Source: Justusliebigvirus alia. From it: a stretch of DNA of 64,000 nt. The first letter of the stretch is position 1, and the number at the start of each line of letters is the position of its first letter. Made by a program: the position numbers and the translations under genes. Below are positions 4,979 through 49,834 of the stretch, one piece after another. Where the stretch lies: the sequence record OZ035799.1. One strand, 5' to 3'. Under the pieces are notes generated by a model that was not told the DNA's origin, ran no database searches, and worked only from the letters and a program-made list of their open reading frames with translations.

Positions 4979-5455
4979 TCAACCTCTCTTAATTTGTTTA
5001 ACAAGCATAGGAACAAAATCTCGTTTTAAAATTTGTTCAATAATATGATCAGGTAGCTGTTGGAAATTATAATTAAAAGCTACTGTCTCACCTTTAGGTG
5101 TTTCTACCCGCACATATAACATGTTACGAAGTTTATCCACTTGTGCTGTATATTCTAAACCATGTAATTGATGCATTGCAAACATCAAATCATCAGTTTC
5201 AGTTTGGAATCTATCATTTGCTTGCATTAAGGACAAGGTAAAAGGTAGATTTTCCCTAAGAGCCACCTTCTTAGGAACTAGTGAAGGAAAATACTCACCA
5301 ATAACTTCCTGTGTAAGCTGGATACACTCTTTTTCAATTTGGTTTTGTTCCTTAAGTTCACAAACACTTTTTTGTAAAGTGTTAACCTCTTTTTGCAAAG
5401 CTGCTAGTTGAGCACTTAACTTTCTTTTTTGATTACGACCAAAACGTTTAGACAT
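4979..5455 (-). CDS. hypothetical protein
   Basis: 158 aa ORF, basic N-terminus with predicted coiled-coil character; no recognisable motif. Confidence 0.5.
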   Translation of the reverse strand: MSKRFGRNQKRKLSAQLAALQKEVNTLQKSVCELKEQNQIEKECIQLTQEVIGEYFPSLVPKKVALRENLPFTLSLMQANDRFQTETDDLMFAMHQLHGLEYTAQVDKLRNMLYVRVETPKGETVAFNYNFQQLPDHIIEQILKRDFVPMLVKQIKRG

Positions 5456-5463
5456 ATTTCCCC

Positions 5464-5979
5464 CTAGTAAAACCCTTTAACAATCTGTATTAACTCGGCA
5501 CAACGGTTGACCAACTTTTCCTCATACAATACACGTTGTGGCATATGTTGTATAATATACTCCATTTGCTCATGCCATGTCCACTTTTCTTTTTTGTCTG
5601 GGATAACATCACTAGCACGAGAATTATCTTTTAATGTTTGTATAATCCAATTGCTTGGAAAGTGCTCTCCACCTTTCTTAAATGGTTTATAGTGGCCTAG
5701 AGTGAATTGAGAATCCCCTGTTAGAGCACCCAATTTATTTAGATGGATAATCAAACTACGAAACACGTAGTATTCATAGATGTTATCCACCGTATAGCAA
5801 GCATAATATTTCAAGATGCCCTTATCTCGCGGATACTTACCAACATCCAGATTGCACCAGTTGACATTTTCTGGATCATAGTGGTGTTCCTTAAGCCATA
5901 TTTCTCTTTCATCAAAGTCTGGATATATTACCGCTCTGCTTACAGAGTCAACAAGTGGAGATTGAGCATCAAAAAACAT
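5464..5979 (-). CDS. hypothetical protein
   Basis: 171 aa ORF in operon context; no recognisable motif. Confidence 0.5.
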   Translation of the reverse strand: MFFDAQSPLVDSVSRAVIYPDFDEREIWLKEHHYDPENVNWCNLDVGKYPRDKGILKYYACYTVDNIYEYYVFRSLIIHLNKLGALTGDSQFTLGHYKPFKKGGEHFPSNWIIQTLKDNSRASDVIPDKKEKWTWHEQMEYIIQHMPQRVLYEEKLVNRCAELIQIVKGFY

Positions 5980-9711: not shown

Positions 9712-9912
9712 TTAATCCCCTTCATATTTAGGTAAAGGCATATATGCCACAATAGGAGGGTAATCAAAGTGAAAATGATGGTTCACCACAATAATCTTAC
9801 CAGACATACTTTTATGCACTTCACAATACCCTTTTTCACCATCTTCCATTACCACCACATACTCACCTAGTGGGATATCGTATGGATCTTCTACTTTTAC
9901 CCATTCTGTCAT
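9712..9912 (-). CDS. hypothetical protein
   Basis: 66 aa ORF; 4-nt overlap with upstream gene. Confidence 0.45.
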   Translation of the reverse strand: MTEWVKVEDPYDIPLGEYVVVMEDGEKGYCEVHKSMSGKIIVVNHHFHFDYPPIVAYMPLPKYEGD

Positions 9913-10178
9913 TTTGGAAACACCTCTTGTCCATCTTCATGCATTTGTAGTAAAGTTTCACAGATTTCATACACATCTTGATATGTTACAACTGAGAGAT
10001 CAGATTCTTGATCTTCGACAAGCATAGCACAAAGAGCTTTAATGTCAATACCTTTACAATGTTCCGTAGCTATACGGTACATTTCACCATCCTCCCAAAC
10101 AATTGGTTGCGGAAGCAAAACGTCTGTACCATCTTCACAAGTTACAATGTAGTCTGCAATATTATCACGAATTTTCAT
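9909..10178 (-). CDS. hypothetical protein
   Basis: 89 aa acidic ORF; overlapping start/stop with neighbours. Confidence 0.5.
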   Translation of the reverse strand: MKIRDNIADYIVTCEDGTDVLLPQPIVWEDGEMYRIATEHCKGIDIKALCAMLVEDQESDLSVVTYQDVYEICETLLQMHEDGQEVFPK

Positions 10179-10432
10179 TGTACTACCCCCTTAAATCCAG
10201 ATGTGCTGCCAGTTTTAACTTTTGCTTTAAGATGTTCCAACTCTACCATAGGTGTTGCTACTTGTATAGGATTTTCCTCAACCTCATGAATATAATATTC
10301 ATAATAAGCATACTTACCAATAGAGTGCAGATACTTAATGGCATGTTCAGGCGAATCTGCTTCGACATACCCTAAATCTTTTGTGGTACGACCTTCACAA
10401 TCACCTTCGGTAGTTACATGATAAAGTGTCAT
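10175..10432 (-). CDS. hypothetical protein
   Basis: 85 aa ORF. Confidence 0.5.
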   Translation of the reverse strand: MTLYHVTTEGDCEGRTTKDLGYVEADSPEHAIKYLHSIGKYAYYEYYIHEVEENPIQVATPMVELEHLKAKVKTGSTSGFKGVVQ

Positions 10433-10581
10433 AAAACCTCCTCATAGTAAGGTAAAGCCTTGATCAGTTGTTCTGAAGTGCCATTTTGTACCCACGTAAC
10501 ACCATTGTCAACAGAAACATACCCTTTTTTGTCAATAAATTTACGCAGACAGCCAGTGAACTTATTTTTGTAGATAACCAT
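10429..10581 (-). CDS. hypothetical small protein
   Basis: 50 aa ORF (MVIYKNKFTGCLRKF...) with GGAG SD; stop overlaps next ATG; not in track. Confidence 0.3.
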   Translation of the reverse strand: MVIYKNKFTGCLRKFIDKKGYVSVDNGVTWVQNGTSEQLIKALPYYEEVL

Positions 10582-10593
10582 CTTTACTCCTTG

Positions 10594-10947
10594 TTACATC
10601 CACAGATTATGGAAATACTTAGCAAACAAAATGCGACCTTCTAAACGATCTTGCCGCTGCTTTTCATTAACTTCTTCTGGTGGAGTTGAGTCCTTAAAAG
10701 AAGACTCCATTTTTTCAAGAATTTCTAACCAGTGCTCTGATGCTCGTTCTTCCATATAAGGTAGATAGTCACCTTTAGCGTGTGGGTACATCCGACGAAG
10801 TAACCCACTAGGAATTTTAACATTATTTGTGGCTATCACTTTTGCACGATATGCAGAAAGTGCATTGTAGATCAGTTTACTTAGTGTCACATCTAAATCA
10901 AGAAGATCACTCTCTTCAAATTGAATTTCATCGTGTACAATTTTCAT
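10594..10947 (-). CDS. hypothetical protein
   Basis: 117 aa ORF. Confidence 0.5.
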   Translation of the reverse strand: MKIVHDEIQFEESDLLDLDVTLSKLIYNALSAYRAKVIATNNVKIPSGLLRRMYPHAKGDYLPYMEERASEHWLEILEKMESSFKDSTPPEEVNEKQRQDRLEGRILFAKYFHNLWM

Positions 10948-10958
10948 ATCACTCTCCT

Positions 10959-11249
10959 TTATAGTAAAACACGTTTTGCACTGCTTGGTGCATTGTCGAA
11001 CATGTTTATCACTTTGTCAAGTTTGTGTATTAACTCGTTCGTAATGTTCCACTCTTTGTATGATCTCCATTGTTTCTTATTCTCACCTACCTGGTGTAAA
11101 ACTTTGATTGGTGCATTCAAACGTACATTGCGTTCTTTGTCCTCTTCAAAAGAGGCTAACCATTTTTCGTTATGCCCATGAACAGCAATAATAATGCCAA
11201 AACCATCAAAAGTTTCTGTAATATTCTTAGTTGCTAGTGTGATGTTCAT
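10959..11249 (-). CDS. hypothetical protein
   Basis: 96 aa ORF with GAGG SD; first gene of the minus-strand block (divergent from 11374). Confidence 0.5.
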   Translation of the reverse strand: MNITLATKNITETFDGFGIIIAVHGHNEKWLASFEEDKERNVRLNAPIKVLHQVGENKKQWRSYKEWNITNELIHKLDKVINMFDNAPSSAKRVLL

Positions 11250-11373
11250 ATCTAACCTCTTTTGTTACGATACACACACACAGAGTACCAGAAATTAATT
11301 TCAGATCAAGTATTGACATACTGTTTTATTGTGCTAATCTTAATGCATACACAAATGAGAGGAGATAAACGAA

Positions 11374-11924
11374 TGCAAAACATCGATCTTACTTGGATAG
11401 AAGCCAAAGAAGCAATGTTAAAAGGCAAACGCGTTAAACATAAATACTTCTGCGAAGGAGAATGGTTTGAAATGCGTAACCGATCCATTGTAGATGAAAA
11501 AGGGAATGACATGCAACAATGGTTCAAAAATGAAATTTGGCAGGGAACAGGTTGGTCTGTAGTTGAAGAGCAGCCTAGCTCAAGCGCACTGTTTAGCCCT
11601 ACTATGTATCGCGTTATCGGTGCTTTAGTTGTTGATCACGGAATTGCAGTGGAAAAAGAATGCTGGGAAGAGGTATCTTTTTTCAACCTGGCTTCTTATG
11701 CAAAAAGCCATATGCACTTGTTTGAAGAAGGGGATGAATTTGTTCTTCGTATGCGATACGGCAAAGAATTCAGATTACCACTTGATAACGATGTAGACAC
11801 TGTTGTAAAATGGTTAGCAGAGCATTATGCTTACGATGCAATTTGTGGTCGCAGCTTCGGCAACGAACGCTGGGACATGATTTGTGAAAAATATGATTTT
11901 GAGCCGGAGTACGGAGTTTTATAA
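11374..11924 (+). CDS. hypothetical protein
   Basis: Start at MQNIDLTWIEAK with GAGAGGAG SD (11358-11365); track ORF starts further upstream without SD. Confidence 0.5.
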
Positions 11925-12175
11925 TGTTAAGTATCAAACCTAAAATGATAACAGAAGACGAAGCAGACTTTATTTTCAAATGTGGACGTGTATGGAGAGA
12001 ATTCACAAAAGGGAATGAAGTAGTGGTTGTTGTCGAACACAAGATATCTATTCAGGATCTGTTTGGACAATATGTTGATGTTATTAAATTAGGTATTGAC
12101 AAGGGTTTAGTTGAGGTGTTAACATTAGATCAAGTTGAAGCAGAGCACCTCGATAAAGTGGTGGTTGAATTTTAA
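11924..12175 (+). CDS. hypothetical protein
   Basis: 83 aa ORF, ATG overlaps previous stop. Confidence 0.5.
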   Translation: MLSIKPKMITEDEADFIFKCGRVWREFTKGNEVVVVVEHKISIQDLFGQYVDVIKLGIDKGLVEVLTLDQVEAEHLDKVVVEF

Positions 12176-12195
12176 AATACAGACGGGAGAAAGGT

Positions 12196-12369
12196 ATGAG
12201 TTTCTTTGTTACAGTATTTATGGCTATCTGGATTGTAGTCTCACTCGTTCTTTTCCTGGTGGGTTGTCTGGAAGAGATTAAGAAAGCGGTTATTTGCGGT
12301 TTCTTTGGCTTTATTATCTCTCCTGCCTGGATGTGGTTCTTCATTATGATTGGTTTCCTTAAAAGGTAA
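12196..12369 (+). CDS. hypothetical small membrane protein
   Basis: 57 aa, two hydrophobic segments (FFVTVFMAIWIVVSLVLFLVG; FGFIISPAWMWFFIMIGF); GGGAGAAAGG SD; not in track. Confidence 0.4.
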   Translation: MSFFVTVFMAIWIVVSLVLFLVGCLEEIKKAVICGFFGFIISPAWMWFFIMIGFLKR

Positions 12370-12383
12370 GTGAGGAATAAAGA

Positions 12384-12821
12384 ATGAGTAAAACAAACGC
12401 AATCGCAGATAAAGCAACGGATGTACTTCTGAACATGGTTAACGTCACTATTCAAACAATGAGTGATGTTGTGGAGTTTGGAAAACAACAAATTCCAGAA
12501 GTAATCCATCAATTATTAGTGTGGAAAGCAGTATCCGCAGGTTTATGGCAACTTTTTAGTATTTGCTTTATGGTTATTACTTTTATTGCTGTGCGGAACC
12601 TCGTAAAAGCAATTAAAGATAAAGAATGCCTGTGGTCACGAGATCGCTATGGTGAAGTATCTGCTTTACCTATTGTTGGCCTTGTTGTCTGTGCTTTCTT
12701 TTTCTTTTTAGGATTTGTTATTTTCTTTTCGAATTTTGATTGGCTAAAAATCATTATTGCACCAAAAGTGTATCTGATTGAATTTGCTGCTGATTTAATT
12801 CGTTCATCTCAACAAAAATAA
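12384..12821 (+). CDS. putative membrane protein
   Basis: 145 aa with hydrophobic segments (AVSAGLWQLFSICFMVITFIAV; LPIVGLVVCAFFFFLGFVIFF). Confidence 0.5.
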   Translation: MSKTNAIADKATDVLLNMVNVTIQTMSDVVEFGKQQIPEVIHQLLVWKAVSAGLWQLFSICFMVITFIAVRNLVKAIKDKECLWSRDRYGEVSALPIVGLVVCAFFFFLGFVIFFSNFDWLKIIIAPKVYLIEFAADLIRSSQQK

Positions 12822-12832
12822 AAGGGGTTAAA

Positions 12833-13960
12833 ATGAAATACACGATTTATGGTGATATTGTAAGTGTAAATAAAGATATGGGCGTGGAATCTAACTATCT
12901 TCCACCTGGATTCTATACTGTTAGTCGTGATCCCCTTGGCAATTACTTTTTAAGCCGTGGTAATCTAACAGGTGTACCGGATGTTCTGTATGGTGAAACA
13001 GAAAAACGAGCAAATCACGTTATTCGTACATTCCATCGCCGGAGTGCACAAGGTAAAAATACAGGTTTGCTCCTGACAGGCACTAAGGGCAGTGGTAAAA
13101 CTATGTTAGCCAAACTCATTAGTCGTGACCTTGTAGAAGAAGGTATTCCAACTATTATGGTTACTCAAGCCTACAGTGATGCTAATTTCATTGAGCTTAT
13201 TAGCAAGATCACCGACAAAGCAGTGATTATTTTTGACGAGTTTGATAAAGTATATGAGAAGAAACAAGATCAAGAAGCACTTCTCACTTTGTTAGATGGT
13301 ACTGGCAGTGGTAATAAACTGTTTATTCTGACTAAAAACAGTGGTTTTATCTCTGAATTCTTTTTAAATCGTCCTAGTCGTGTGTTTTATAATTTTAATT
13401 ATGATAAAATCTCACTAGAAACTATGATTGACTATTTAGATAAAAACCTGGATAACAAAGCACACTTTGATAATTTCCAAAGACTTTGGGATGTAAGTTT
13501 AGAGTTGTCCTTTGATGTGATCCAAGGTATAGTAGAAGAACTTAATTTCTACCCTGATTTATCCTTTAAAGAATGCATCTCTATGATGGGCGTTTCTTTG
13601 GGTGGTGGTAATAAGTGGGATATCAGCAGCGTTGTTATTAATGGGAAACTTCAGAAAGTTAGCTGGGTATCTAGTTGGCATAACTTCACACCTGCAATCT
13701 TTTTAGGTGGCTCGTGCACACTAGACGTGTACTTGTCATCTCCAAGTGATGCAGACTCTAAAGAAGCCCTTGCTAATAGCTCTTACGTGGTTTTTGATGA
13801 TGAAGGAGATGCTCGAATTCCATTGAATGCGACAAAAATGAAAGCAGATCTTATTACAGGCGGTAAAATCGTTGTGTTTAGTGATGATCCAGAAGATTCT
13901 TTCCGTATTGTTCTGGAACCAACTATCACCAATGGTGCAACTTTGGCAAGCGTGTTTTAA
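12833..13960 (+). CDS. AAA-family ATPase
   Basis: Walker A LLLTGTKGSGKTMLAK, Walker B AVIIFDEFD; function not assignable. Confidence 0.65.
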   Translation: MKYTIYGDIVSVNKDMGVESNYLPPGFYTVSRDPLGNYFLSRGNLTGVPDVLYGETEKRANHVIRTFHRRSAQGKNTGLLLTGTKGSGKTMLAKLISRDLVEEGIPTIMVTQAYSDANFIELISKITDKAVIIFDEFDKVYEKKQDQEALLTLLDGTGSGNKLFILTKNSGFISEFFLNRPSRVFYNFNYDKISLETMIDYLDKNLDNKAHFDNFQRLWDVSLELSFDVIQGIVEELNFYPDLSFKECISMMGVSLGGGNKWDISSVVINGKLQKVSWVSSWHNFTPAIFLGGSCTLDVYLSSPSDADSKEALANSSYVVFDDEGDARIPLNATKMKADLITGGKIVVFSDDPEDSFRIVLEPTITNGATLASVF

Positions 13961-16195: not shown

Positions 16196-16295
16196 GCGTA
16201 TGATAATCATTTTCATTTGTAAATGAGAATCATTATCATTTAAGTATGTAAGTGATAATCATTCTCACTAAGAGAATGAGAATCATTAGCAAATG
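16196..16295. promoter_or_regulatory. cluster of Fur-box-like palindromes
   Basis: gtaaatgagaatcattatc and gagaatgagaatcattagc each match 16/19 of the Fur consensus GATAATGATAATCATTATC; flanked by gataatcatt half-sites. Confidence 0.35.
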
Positions 16296-27149: not shown

Positions 27150-27429
27150 ACCTCAATAAAGATGATAGCTTTTACCTATCAAAAACGTTCACCGAAAAAA
27201 GTGAATAGATCGCGGTATCGAGCTAATCAAGGAGCAGATGAACAACCATACCATGAAGATCATAAGGCGCTTACAACGTGTTTTAGACCGCTTATTTTTA
27301 ATTTCTTCATGCAACTATCTGGCAAAAACAGCCTTTTTCTTGTCTTTCCTCTTAAATGATAATCATTCTTATTTATAGCTGATTATTTATGCAATAAACT
27401 GCATAATGCAATAATGATAATCATTCTTA

Positions 27430-28062: not shown

Positions 28063-28944
28063 ACATCGTGAATAATGATGCTGATGATCATAATGCGCCA
28101 CCTTCCAGGGCGGCGCTATGTGAACACAAAGAAATCTTTCTTGTCAAGAAAAATATTAACACTATTGCGCAAAATTATTTATATATGAATAGATGGTTTT
28201 TCATACTATTGCCCCTATAACATACCTCATTTGTTGCAATGTACCTTCCTATTTGTTGAGTATAGTTATAGCCTATTTGTTGAGCCTACTTTCTTAAAAG
28301 CGCAATAAAGTAGAAATATCTTGATTTTTAGTCGGTTTTATAGTACAGAAAGTATGCAAATGATAATCATTATCAGCTATCTTCCACGGGTAGCACTATT
28401 TCACGCCAGATCATTTCATTTGGCAAGGTGTATATAGATGTTTAGACTTGCCAAGCCATTGATTTACTTAGAATTTATCTGTTTTGTTGTGAGTAGTACC
28501 TTTCTTGCTCAGAAAATAATCAAAAGTCTTATAAGTCATTGAATGATAATGCAAATGATAATTATTCTCATTGATATTTGAGGGGGACGGTCGGCAGAAA
28601 TCGGGGGGCGCTGAAAATCGCGTTAAGCACCTCTCGCAAGCGAGCAGTATTTTGCGGCAAGTTATTGATATTATTGACTTTACGCTTATGAAAAGGGGGT
28701 GTGTCGAAATAAATCGGGTATACCGGAAAATTTTTGTGGCATAGATATTTATTTGTCTATATTATGTACAAAGGGGTGTGTTAAAAATATTAGGTATATA
28801 TAGAATAATTGATAGGGAAATCCTATGCTAATCCCTCCATTAATGATGTTCCTATGTTACTGTTCTTGTAATAGATGAAAAGACGCTGTATGATGTGTGG
28901 CATGAAACGTAAACTTACAACGTAAACTTATAAAGGAGTCTGAT

Positions 28945-45960: not shown

Positions 45961-46281
45961 TTAACAAGTAATATTGGGAGTAACAATTGGATTAACAATT
46001 GGAGTGATAGGGTACGTAAACCAAGGGCTTCCAATTTCCCAAGGATTATAAGGTCTACGAGGATCAAATGGAGGAGTTACTTCAGGCTTTTTCCAAATCT
46101 CCGCTAGTTGTTTCTTCCATTTATCCCTTGCTGTCTCATTATCTTCATCCAACTGTTCATCATTATCTTTTATTTCTGGTTTTGGAAATAAAAGCTCTTT
46201 GACTAACTCAACATCTTCCGTCTCAATAGTAGTTTCTTTCGTAAGTTCTCCTACTGTTTCTTTAATTGTGATTTTATACAT
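45961..46281 (-). CDS. hypothetical Pro-rich protein
   Basis: 106 aa, C-terminal PPFDPRRPYNPWEIGSPWFTYPITPIVNPIVTP. Confidence 0.45.
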   Translation of the reverse strand: MYKITIKETVGELTKETTIETEDVELVKELLFPKPEIKDNDEQLDEDNETARDKWKKQLAEIWKKPEVTPPFDPRRPYNPWEIGSPWFTYPITPIVNPIVTPNITC

Positions 46282-47027
46282 TAGTCCTCCTCTAAAGTAG
46301 AATAAAATTGTAACGTATTTGAATCATCAAAATATGCAAAGGTTAAATTACCATTGAAGCAAGATCCTGTGTCCATATATACCCTATTACTGCTAATTAC
46401 AGGCTTAGGAACATAAGAATGCCCGTGAAATACATAATCTACTCCTGAAACTCTAGGAAGAAGAATCCCTTCAAGTGCGCAATCTATCATATCACGATCC
46501 CACATTAAAGATTCTGTGAATCGAGAAACTTGCTCTTTATTCATATTCAAACAAAATGGCAAAACTTCTGTCACTGGTAAATGTTCCAAAACTGAAGGAT
46601 ACCCACCGTGAATAAAGCCTAGTTTCATATTACGATAATTGACAACAAGTACAACAGGTAAATCTTCTAGCATCAAAGCAAGAGCAGTTGCACCCTCTTC
46701 TCCACACTCGTCTAGAACTGTATGGCCTCCGTTCTGAAACCAACATTCGTAATATCGTCTATCACCTTCTAGCAACCCTTTAATCATCATATCTTCATGA
46801 TTTCCACGAATACCATAACGATTTAGCTTTCTGGTGAATTCAACAACACAACGAAAATTCTGCTTGCCGCGATCTGTAAGATCTCCTAGAGATACAACAA
46901 CATCTTGATCTCGGATACCTAAAGTATTAACACCTTTCTGGTACAAATCAAAGCAACCATGTAAATCACCAATAATAAACAGGTCTTGATCATCTTTTAC
47001 ACTAATTTCTTGATATACTAACATCAA
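46281..47027 (-). CDS. Ser/Thr protein phosphatase (calcineurin-like metallophosphatase)
   Basis: IIGDLHGC, SLGDLTDRG, GNHE metallophosphatase motifs. Confidence 0.8.
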   Translation of the reverse strand: MMLVYQEISVKDDQDLFIIGDLHGCFDLYQKGVNTLGIRDQDVVVSLGDLTDRGKQNFRCVVEFTRKLNRYGIRGNHEDMMIKGLLEGDRRYYECWFQNGGHTVLDECGEEGATALALMLEDLPVVLVVNYRNMKLGFIHGGYPSVLEHLPVTEVLPFCLNMNKEQVSRFTESLMWDRDMIDCALEGILLPRVSGVDYVFHGHSYVPKPVISSNRVYMDTGSCFNGNLTFAYFDDSNTLQFYSTLEED

Positions 47028-48157: not shown

Positions 48158-48820
48158 TTATTTAATATTCAATTTTGCACAAAGACGTTGTACCGCTTTG
48201 GCATCGAACAAACTCCCACGAATAGTTCTCTTTCCTGATTCATTCAGATGCTTTGCAATCGTCATATATGGCGTTCTACAAGCTCTGTATGCAACTAAAG
48301 AATCTTTTAAAGAAAGCGCAAACTCTCTTGAGCGTTTTGCTTCTTCCGTTTTCGTATAATCTGTTCTTTTGTATTTAGGGTTTGCTGCACCAAGAAGCGT
48401 TCCCTTCGCTTTTGCTACCTTAAGGCTCTTCTTAACACGATCAGATATTGCACGAGCCTCTTCTTCTGCCAGAACTGCTAAAATATTTATTATCATATTT
48501 TCAGCGGAGGGCATAGTTGCAATCCGTACATTAATCATCTCTAACAAGGTTGCAACAGAAGCTGTGTTACGTCCAAGACGGTCAACCTTAGCAACAACAA
48601 GTGTAGCACCTGTTTCTTTGCAAAGATTAACAGCTTTTACAAGCTCTCTACGTTGCTTCCAATCGCCTTTACCAGAATAAAACTCTGCAAAGCTACCTAC
48701 AATAGTATAATTTTCTTGTGAATCCAGGAAGCGTTGGATATCTGCTTCCTGTGATTCTATACCATACTGGTTGCCTTGTTGTTTCTTCTTAGAAAGTCGA
48801 TGATACAGTACAAACTTCAT
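48158..48820 (-). CDS. serine recombinase (resolvase/invertase family)
   Basis: N-terminal VLYHRLSKKKQ with catalytic Ser context, GIESQ, VAKVDRLGRN; C-terminal helix-turn-helix-like segment; AGGAGG SD. Confidence 0.75.
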   Translation of the reverse strand: MKFVLYHRLSKKKQQGNQYGIESQEADIQRFLDSQENYTIVGSFAEFYSGKGDWKQRRELVKAVNLCKETGATLVVAKVDRLGRNTASVATLLEMINVRIATMPSAENMIINILAVLAEEEARAISDRVKKSLKVAKAKGTLLGAANPKYKRTDYTKTEEAKRSREFALSLKDSLVAYRACRTPYMTIAKHLNESGKRTIRGSLFDAKAVQRLCAKLNIK

Positions 48821-48877
48821 AATACCCTCCTGTTCTGTTGCAGGAAGTATGCACTACCTTAATGTTAAAGTCAACAG

Positions 48878-49081: not shown

Positions 49082-49332
49082 TATTCTTCCCAATCGTTGT
49101 TACGAGCACTTTCAAGAACCTTGACAACTTCTGCATACTCTACAGCTAAACCAGCACACACTTCAGCTTGTTTTGCAATTGCTTGTTTAAAGAACATAGC
49201 GATTGCAACACTCTGTGTTGTGTGAATGTTATCTGCTTTAGTTGATACATGAAGATCAAAATCTTCTTCATCAAAGGTGAGTTCCATAGTAACAATAAAT
49301 TTCTCGGTCATAAAAATGCTCCTCTTAAACAA
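49081..49332 (-). CDS. hypothetical protein
   Basis: 83 aa ORF. Confidence 0.45.
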   Translation of the reverse strand: MFKRSIFMTEKFIVTMELTFDEEDFDLHVSTKADNIHTTQSVAIAMFFKQAIAKQAEVCAGLAVEYAEVVKVLESARNNDWEE

Positions 49333-49834
49333 AATAGAAAGGTTGAGTTAAACCCAGCCTGTTTTTTGGGTCGTAGACGTACCAAGCATATGCTGTCTTG
49401 TCAGTACCACCTGCAACAAAAGATGGTCGTTCAGAAAGAACGATCAAATTTGTTGGTGGATTCTGTTTATGGAATTCCCTTCGTTTAATAGACTCTAGGA
49501 ACCCAAGACGCAACAAGTATATGCAAACGTCTGCTTCTTTTAAGCTCTTTTGCAAGAACTCAAGTGCAAGTCTGAATGGTGGATTTGTGATTATAATATC
49601 CGGCTTAGTATGCCATTCGTGGTTAAAATAATCCTTCCCTTCTTCTAACTCACAATATTCTGATCCTTCTGGAAAATGTTGATAAATTGCAGCAGCAGCG
49701 CCTTTACACGGTTCTGCAAAAATAAAACCTTCTTCTTTAAGGTTATTAAAATCTATTACACTAAATAATGCATTTATACATTTTTGTGGAGTAGGATAGT
49801 AATCAGTTGGTGGACGATCATACTTATTTGCCAC
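49325..49834 (-). CDS. DNA methyltransferase (amino-MTase, likely N6-adenine)
   Basis: Motif IV IIITNPPF and SAM-binding-like FAEPCKGAAA. Confidence 0.6.
   Translation of the reverse strand: MANKYDRPPTDYYPTPQKCINALFSVIDFNNLKEEGFIFAEPCKGAAAAIYQHFPEGSEYCELEEGKDYFNHEWHTKPDIIITNPPFRLALEFLQKSLKEADVCIYLLRLGFLESIKRREFHKQNPPTNLIVLSERPSFVAGGTDKTAYAWYVYDPKNRLGLTQPFYFV

Follow-up and report, generated by a model that had tools for sequence, protein, structure and literature searches.

A small serine recombinase gene conserved in the strictly lytic phi92-like and phAPEC8-like myoviruses and their distant marine relatives

The stretch of DNA analysed here, referred to as the window, comprises the 64,000 nucleotides at positions 64001-128000 of record OZ035770.1, the 148,442 bp genome of the phi92-like lytic myovirus Justusliebigvirus alia. 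The record is 1.4 kb longer than the original alia record MN850632.1 and about 97-98% identical to it; the name is a species assignment, and the two records represent different isolates. At 48158-48820 on the minus strand the window holds an open reading frame of 220 amino acids with an ATG start and the N-terminus MKFVLYHRLS, in which the YHRLS serine context pointed out in the first-pass annotation is readily seen. That annotation had called the gene a resolvase/invertase-type serine recombinase, and the assignment, which draws on the list of open reading frames, on Pfam and on an AlphaFold2 model, holds: residues 4-141 match the Pfam Resolvase family PF00239 (E=8e-22, 78.3 bits against a cutoff of 23.3), placing the protein in the serine recombinase superfamily, and its best PHROG match is PHROG 125, “DNA invertase” (E=2e-31), while PHROG 95, “integrase”, is matched as well (E=1e-25). 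The gene is the ortholog of phi92 gp053 (YP_009012384.1, 99.1% amino acid identity), which has the same neighbours, lies on the same strand and differs in no substantive respect. In RefSeq gp053 is labelled “DNA invertase / putative recombinase, resolvase family”, and many sister records carry similar labels, so that the recombinase gene as such was already known; the “invertase” in the phi92 label is based on homology.

As the first reading of the sequence had proposed, the recombinase gene has a strong ribosome-binding site of its own, AGGAGGG, read from the sequence at 48825-48831 (minus strand), four nucleotides upstream of the ATG. Its GGAGG core is kept in four related lineages, namely Klebsiella phage FKP3 and the lineages L022, L023 and L024, the last of which has a weaker form (GAGGAG). 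Further upstream, at 48846-48874 on the same strand, a consensus scan combined with positional conservation predicts a sigma-70-like promoter dedicated to the recombinase, TTGACT-17 nt-CATACT. The scan by itself was not significant, since it returned 28 sites where 28.5 were expected. However, FKP3, Phapecoctavirus Ro121, Shewanella phage 1/40 and three metagenomic lineages all have TTGAC(A/T)-N17-(-10) in the corresponding position, and it is this positional conservation across lineages, and not the scan score, that points to an early promoter of host type dedicated to the gene. The spacer upstream measures 57 bp in alia and 50-70 bp across the lineages, and its sequence outside the promoter and the ribosome-binding site is not conserved.

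The gene is placed between an N6-adenine methyltransferase gene at 49325-49834 and a phosphatase gene at 46281-47027, in agreement with the first-pass annotation. The methyltransferase has an NPPF motif and is so annotated in phi92 and sister phages; it gave no Pfam match. The phosphatase is a Ser/Thr phosphatase of the Metallophos type (Pfam E=3e-13). Searches of the small open reading frames adjoining the recombinase gene with NCBIfam, PADLOC and Pfam returned nothing informative. According to the phi92 annotation the surrounding block consists of early accessory genes, with PhoH-like, Sir2-like, HslV-like and DprA-like genes, the Ser/Thr phosphatase and orphan methyltransferases.

An alignment of 26 homologs, reaching down to 31% identity, showed residues D80, R81, R84, E121 and R128 of the recombinase to be invariant and Y6, R8 and S10 to be nearly so. 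Y6, R8 and S10 are placed as in the gamma-delta and Tn3 resolvases, and the motif VDRLGR aligns with D67, R68 and R71 of these enzymes. Judged from these conserved residues, the recombinase is intact and catalytically competent. In the AlphaFold2 model (mean pLDDT 87), residues 1-105 make up the catalytic domain and 108-138 a long alpha-E helix; a disordered stretch at 139-157 then links these to a C-terminal domain of four helices (157-216). The first-pass annotation had proposed a C-terminal helix-turn-helix; a helical C-terminal domain is indeed modelled at 157-216, but it is not the HTH_7 domain of Pfam, to which no match was obtained. Over its full length the model is matched best by large serine recombinases (Bxb1, 9iu2 and 9dxd); among compact matches the catalytic domains of Sin come first, with a TM-score of about 0.7 on the target. 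The best partial match in NCBIfam is to residues 10-225 of the 542 residues of CcrB, and solved invertase structures match weakly, with E about 1e-3. From the Bxb1 and CcrB matches together with the missing HTH_7 match we conclude that the C-terminal domain is of the kind found in the large enzymes: in the model, this is a small enzyme whose DNA-binding domain looks like the opening portion of the “recombinase domain” in the large ones.

Compared with known systems, the recombinase thus combines features of several groups. It resembles Bxb1, phiC31 and CcrB in its N-terminal S-x-Q spacing and in the helices that open their “recombinase domain”, but it is less than half their size and is found without zinc-ribbon or coiled-coil domains, attP/attB or prophages. 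The catalytic domain and its residues are shared with the Sin, Tn3 and gamma-delta resolvases, whereas these carry a three-helix HTH_7 in place of the C-terminal domain seen here, and the phage gene has neither an upstream multi-subsite res nor a transposon context. The invertases Hin, Gin, Cin and Pin, which are phage-borne in Mu and P1, have the serine recombinase catalytic fold in common with it; the similarity is weak (E about 1e-3), and there are no inverted crossover sites and no adjacent invertible segment in the phage. The Fis-dependent enhancer that these invertase genes carry in their 5′ coding region has left no sign in the recombinase gene either. Synonymous variation is even along the gene (0.29-0.62, mean 0.46, over five lineages), with no stretch of suppressed synonymous change in these lineages, and an enhancer-like element inside the gene can therefore be dismissed. 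The dN/dS ratio of the gene against its relatives is 0.06-0.08, indicating strong purifying selection.

The recombinase is present at full length in all 55 Justusliebigvirus records, with 98.6-100% amino acid identity, and it is full length in 155 of the 161 phage records. Identity falls to 78% in FKP3, to about 55-57% in the Phapecoctavirus records listed, and to 33-40% in Vibrio and Shewanella phages of 130-140 kb. In a collection of 5.8 billion proteins the family forms a compact clade found largely on contigs of 135-157 kb. The features of this clade, a length of 216-243 amino acids, the same architecture, a phage genome of 130-157 kb and a position usually between PhoH-like and DprA-like genes, are all seen here, and the recombinase belongs to a phage-specific clade of small serine recombinases from the Stephanstirmvirinae and marine myoviruses. 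The locus is syntenic in FKP3 and in three lineages known from metagenomes (88, 82 and 71% identical), and the order PhoH, HslV-like, recombinase, DprA-like recurs in Shewanella phage 1/40, where the recombinase is 39.5% identical.

Phapecoctavirus has the recombinase gene, together with the promoter that serves it, at another locus and in opposite orientation with respect to the backbone (L005, NC_052654.1, Ro121c4YLVW, 4995-5666). Its flanking genes there are homologous to those at 33.8 and 36.9 kb of the window, and the neighbours known from Justusliebigvirus have not moved along with it. The Phapecoctavirus position is a relocation of the recombinase alone and an exception to the synteny. 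Among the matches listed for the recombinase there were no rV5-like phages, and where the phi92 annotation mentions PVP-SE1 homologs, it does so only for the genes adjoining gp053; the rV5/PVP-SE1 group, which makes up the sister subfamily Vequintavirinae, appears to be without the gene.

The recombinase is encoded by an early gene that the phi92/phAPEC8 group of strictly lytic myoviruses (Stephanstirmvirinae) and its distant marine relatives have passed on vertically over a long time. The suggestion in the first-pass annotation that it could be the remnant of a mobile element that brought in the methyltransferase genes does not survive, because the kept gene order in FKP3, the three metagenomic lineages and Shewanella 1/40, together with a dN/dS of about 0.07, argues against a recent remnant of this kind.

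Site-specific recombinases of the Hin/Gin type act on a pair of inverted crossover sites of about 26 bp, and no such pair was found in the 40-56 kb region or genome-wide. When 40-56 kb, the window and the whole 148-kb genome were searched for direct and inverted repeats, nothing but tRNA paralogs and terminator hairpins came up; the hairpins account for all inverted repeats at each of these three scales, the longest genome-wide being terminator-like and 28-33 bp in length. The check for inverted repeats flanking a segment near the gene, proposed together with the idea of an invertase acting on a nearby switchable segment, thus came out negative when it was run on 40-56 kb, and the idea itself finds no support, since the 24 kb around the recombinase gene are also collinear in about 55 assemblies.

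For the survey of segment orientation the whole genome was divided into six chunks of about 25 kb, each of which was compared with about 55 sister assemblies. All chunks were collinear, the additional “places” being record ends, with the exception of a 0.9-kb module at about 10599-11565 of the window, which has the alia orientation in about 31 records and is inverted in about 24. With the module delimited at 10594-11565 (flanks 10435-12982), the inverted form was observed in PHB05, outra, J-01, ESCO8, EmilieFrey, MT932211 VEcB and others. The module contains a gene of 117 amino acids, a DUF7325 gene of 96 amino acids, a divergent promoter region and the 5′ module of an open reading frame of 183 amino acids (11373-11924), which in the inverted type is split into a gene of 59 amino acids and a separate downstream gene. 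A DUF2829 domain considered for the start of the 183-amino-acid frame found no confirmation in Pfam.

When the module was followed up in eight genomes, its junctions were found to fall exactly on gene boundaries, and the linkers differed with the orientation (18 against 36 nt at one junction, about 60-200 against 194 nt at the other). No inverted repeat of at least 10 bp was present at the module ends, which show 70-74% identity between orientation types against more than 93% within a type, and the interior is a mosaic with some blocks 100% identical across types. A programmed switch was rejected on account of the boundary junctions, the type-specific linkers and ends and the lack of end repeats. 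The orientation-specific ends and the mosaic interior instead indicate an old modular inversion that left two alleles, later homogenised by gene conversion. The pair OZ035773 and MT932211, both named “VEcB”, have the module in opposite orientation and flanks that are 92-98% identical; they are distinct isolates, and the pair was rejected as evidence of recent flipping. The module and the recombinase gene are 37 kb apart with nothing connecting them, though the recombinase might conceivably have made the inversion at some time in the past. Adjoining the inverted module, a 508-bp stretch at 9927-10434 with two small minus-strand frames (9909-10178 and 10175-10432) is absent from PHB05, J-01, phi92 and JohannJBalmer and is an indel polymorphism. 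Among the sister phages the genome varies most between 11 and 36 kb, where the tRNA cluster and small early genes are located.

No recombination site for the recombinase was found in the phage genome. Phylogenetic footprinting of the spacer and of synonymous sites in five lineages revealed no hidden cis element, the promoter hexamers and the ribosome-binding site alone being conserved, and since the 57-bp spacer holds just the promoter and the ribosome-binding site, a res-type array of several subsites next to the gene is absent. Palindromes overlap the promoter in FKP3 (25 bp) and in Shewanella 1/40 (34 bp); they were rejected as a conserved site because their positions differ between the two phages and alia has none. 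A further candidate was a set of Fur-box-like near-palindromes of 19 bp with the core AATGATAATCATTATC, located at 16199-16290, 27355-27428, 28356-28377 and 28554-28572. At up to 3 mismatches there are 24 matches where 2.2 are expected, and they cluster in non-coding DNA, with a run of four at 16.2 kb, a pair at 27.4 kb and another pair in the terminal repeat described below. Their closeness to the E. coli Fur consensus, their odd (9-1-9) symmetry and the near invariance across genera of the copy at 28554-28572 inside the terminal repeat make them unlikely sites for the recombinase. By their sequence these putative Fur boxes may bind the host Fur protein at the genome end; no paper on Fur boxes at this genome end was found.

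The virion DNA has fixed ends, and these physical ends of the genome are probably at 28283-28625 of the window. Identical direct terminal repeats (DTR) of 343 bp, annotated at both ends of Salmonella phage UAB_1, map to this interval, several submitted records begin at 28283, and phi92 ends at 28625. A DTR of 342 bp has been reported for BME3 by PhageTerm and maps 73 bp further right, to 28356-28697. The stretch at about 28521-28681, the right part of the repeat, has been kept in FKP3, Klebsiella phage KP2025 and Phapecoctavirus phiWec190 and contains GAAAATCGCGTTA and, adjoining it, AGCACCTCTCGCAAGCGAGC; a CTCGC-AA-GCGAG dyad lies just outside the repeat.

The sole full-length cellular relatives of the recombinase are plasmid-borne, with about 35% identity over 98-100% coverage. 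Each is the sole recombinase of a small plasmid, as on the 6.4-kb Synechococcus plasmid pIITB3_2 (WP_338431979.1) and on the 7.3-kb Phaeobacter plasmid pP18_i (WP_102906889.1), the latter of which also encodes Rep and ParA, and they have the same length and architecture as the phage protein. By analogy, such a setting would be the classic context of multimer resolution, which is the function expected of these plasmid proteins; an identity of 35% is too low for target sites to be transferred from them to the phage.

Our best guess, held with low confidence, is that the recombinase serves concatemer or multimer resolution, which is the most plausible of the remaining readings and the one to which the plasmid setting of its relatives and the direct terminal repeats point. 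We tentatively propose, at somewhat less than even chances, that it acts early in infection, in the manner of a resolvase and at a single site in each genome copy, on the DNA of the phage itself, monomerising or cyclising replicating genomes. By the chemistry of the family, recombinase dimers would bind a dyad-symmetric site and two such sites would synapse in a tetramer, whereupon Ser10 would cut both DNA strands in concert to leave 2-nt overhangs, and the ends would be rejoined after a 180-degree rotation of one half of the tetramer. The sole published comment on the role puts forward the same resolution idea, without data (PMC10282059). Several observations weigh against a resolvase role: besides the lack of a detectable recombination site there is no Tn3/Sin-style res adjoining the gene and no suppressed synonymous stretch inside it, monomerisation of concatemers would oppose packaging, and classical resolvases require supercoiled circles, whereas virion DNA is linear. 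Furthermore, the sister subfamily (rV5, PVP-SE1) apparently does without the gene, and the plasmid homologs, too, are only putative resolvases.

A more specific version of the proposal places the action inside or beside the 343-bp DTR. Because the terminal repeats are direct, any site within them would occur twice and in direct order on each incoming molecule and at concatemer junctions, and an early recombinase acting in or near the DTR could, early in infection, turn the incoming linear genome into a circle or release circular monomers, which in a strictly lytic phage would be a serine recombinase counterpart of the Cre/lox step. Cre cyclises and monomerises P1 genomes. The analogy is purely functional, in that P1 Cre/loxP exemplifies a phage enzyme able to cyclise terminally redundant DNA and to resolve dimers, whereas Cre is a tyrosine recombinase, P1 is temperate and no lox-like site was found in the alia genome. 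We regard this localisation to the DTR as rather unlikely.

The label used in GenBank implies a DNA invertase of the Gin, Cin and Hin kind, which would turn a segment of the phage genome around and so switch gene expression. The PHROG 125 match speaks for this, as do the occurrence of the promoter-containing 0.9-kb module in both orientations among sister phages and the complete identity of its interior blocks across orientation types. Nevertheless, we consider an invertase very improbable, since inverted repeats flank neither the gene nor any segment, the protein has no HTH_7 and resembles solved invertases poorly, the rest of the genome is collinear, and the module, with its ends specific to the orientation and its junctions at gene boundaries, fits an old inversion followed by gene conversion. 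Even less credence can be given to an integrase or a plasmid-prophage maintenance function serving a hidden temperate or carrier state. The PHROG 95 match and the closeness of the fold and of the C-terminal domain to the N-terminal half of the large serine integrases (Bxb1 9iu2 and 9dxd, CcrB in part) are compatible with it, but at 220 amino acids the protein compares with more than 400 in such integrases and the model ends after the four-helix domain, with neither zinc-ribbon nor coiled-coil. The gene region has no blastn match in 5,426 complete E. coli genomes and plasmids, 185,579 species genomes of bacteria and archaea (GTDB) yielded no relative in a pattern scan with tblastn confirmation, a plasmid search returned only relatives at about 35% identity, and the homologs sit on phage contigs of 135-157 kb. 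Papers on these phages describe them as strictly lytic. The integrase or carrier reading, which the first-pass annotation had rightly judged unlikely, is thereby already largely refuted.

Other explanations dispense with a site in the phage genome, with recombination or with a benefit to the phage. The substrate could be DNA other than that of the phage, in which case the recombinase would be an early factor of takeover or competition, cutting or rearranging the DNA of the host or of plasmids, prophages or satellites; the early host-type promoter, the location in a block of early accessory genes and the failure to detect a cognate site in the phage genome all fit such a role. It would be without precedent, no PADLOC or other defence-related match was obtained, and the same family is kept in phages of hosts as different as Escherichia, Klebsiella, Vibrio and Shewanella, which argues against a host-specific target sequence, so that we find this unlikely. 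The recombinase gene and its promoter might alternatively be a selfish or leftover cassette that moves or persists for its own sake and is of no use to the phage. Their joint relocation in Phapecoctavirus, in opposite orientation and without the Justusliebigvirus neighbours, and the apparent absence from the Vequintavirinae would suit a cassette of this type, which we hold to be distinctly unlikely in view of the strong purifying selection, the full-length presence in essentially every member of two genera, the ancient gene order shared with a marine phage at 39.5% identity, the absence of flanking repeats or target duplications and a domain order unlike that of IS607-type transposases. Finally, the protein could work mainly as a regulator that binds DNA at specific sites, in the way TnpR represses at res, and recombination would then be irrelevant. 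Resolvases are autorepressors in Tn3 and gamma-delta, and the palindromes of FKP3 and Shewanella 1/40 do overlap the recombinase promoter; with positions that are not conserved, with none in alia, and with a full catalytic set conserved or invariant over a wide divergence, which binding alone would not need, a purely regulatory function is improbable.

The gene and all three roles suggested for it are already in public annotations and one paper, and for this reason the finding adds little to what is known. It is nonetheless of practical relevance that phi92-like and phAPEC8-like phages are often favoured as candidates in phage therapy and that screening software flags any recombinase as a possible marker of lysogeny. 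The present data indicate that the recombinase is a conserved part of a lytic genome and not an integration function, as no prophage or plasmid copy turned up in the searches made. It has long been kept under strong selection in virulent phages, and knowing where it acts would uncover a step in the way these phages handle their genomes. Among the records inspected, MG065639, MG065645, MG065656 and MG065689 are entered as “Campylobacter phage” with C. jejuni as host; in the regions compared they are about 98% identical to the E. coli phages described here, and they are probably mislabelled or contaminants.
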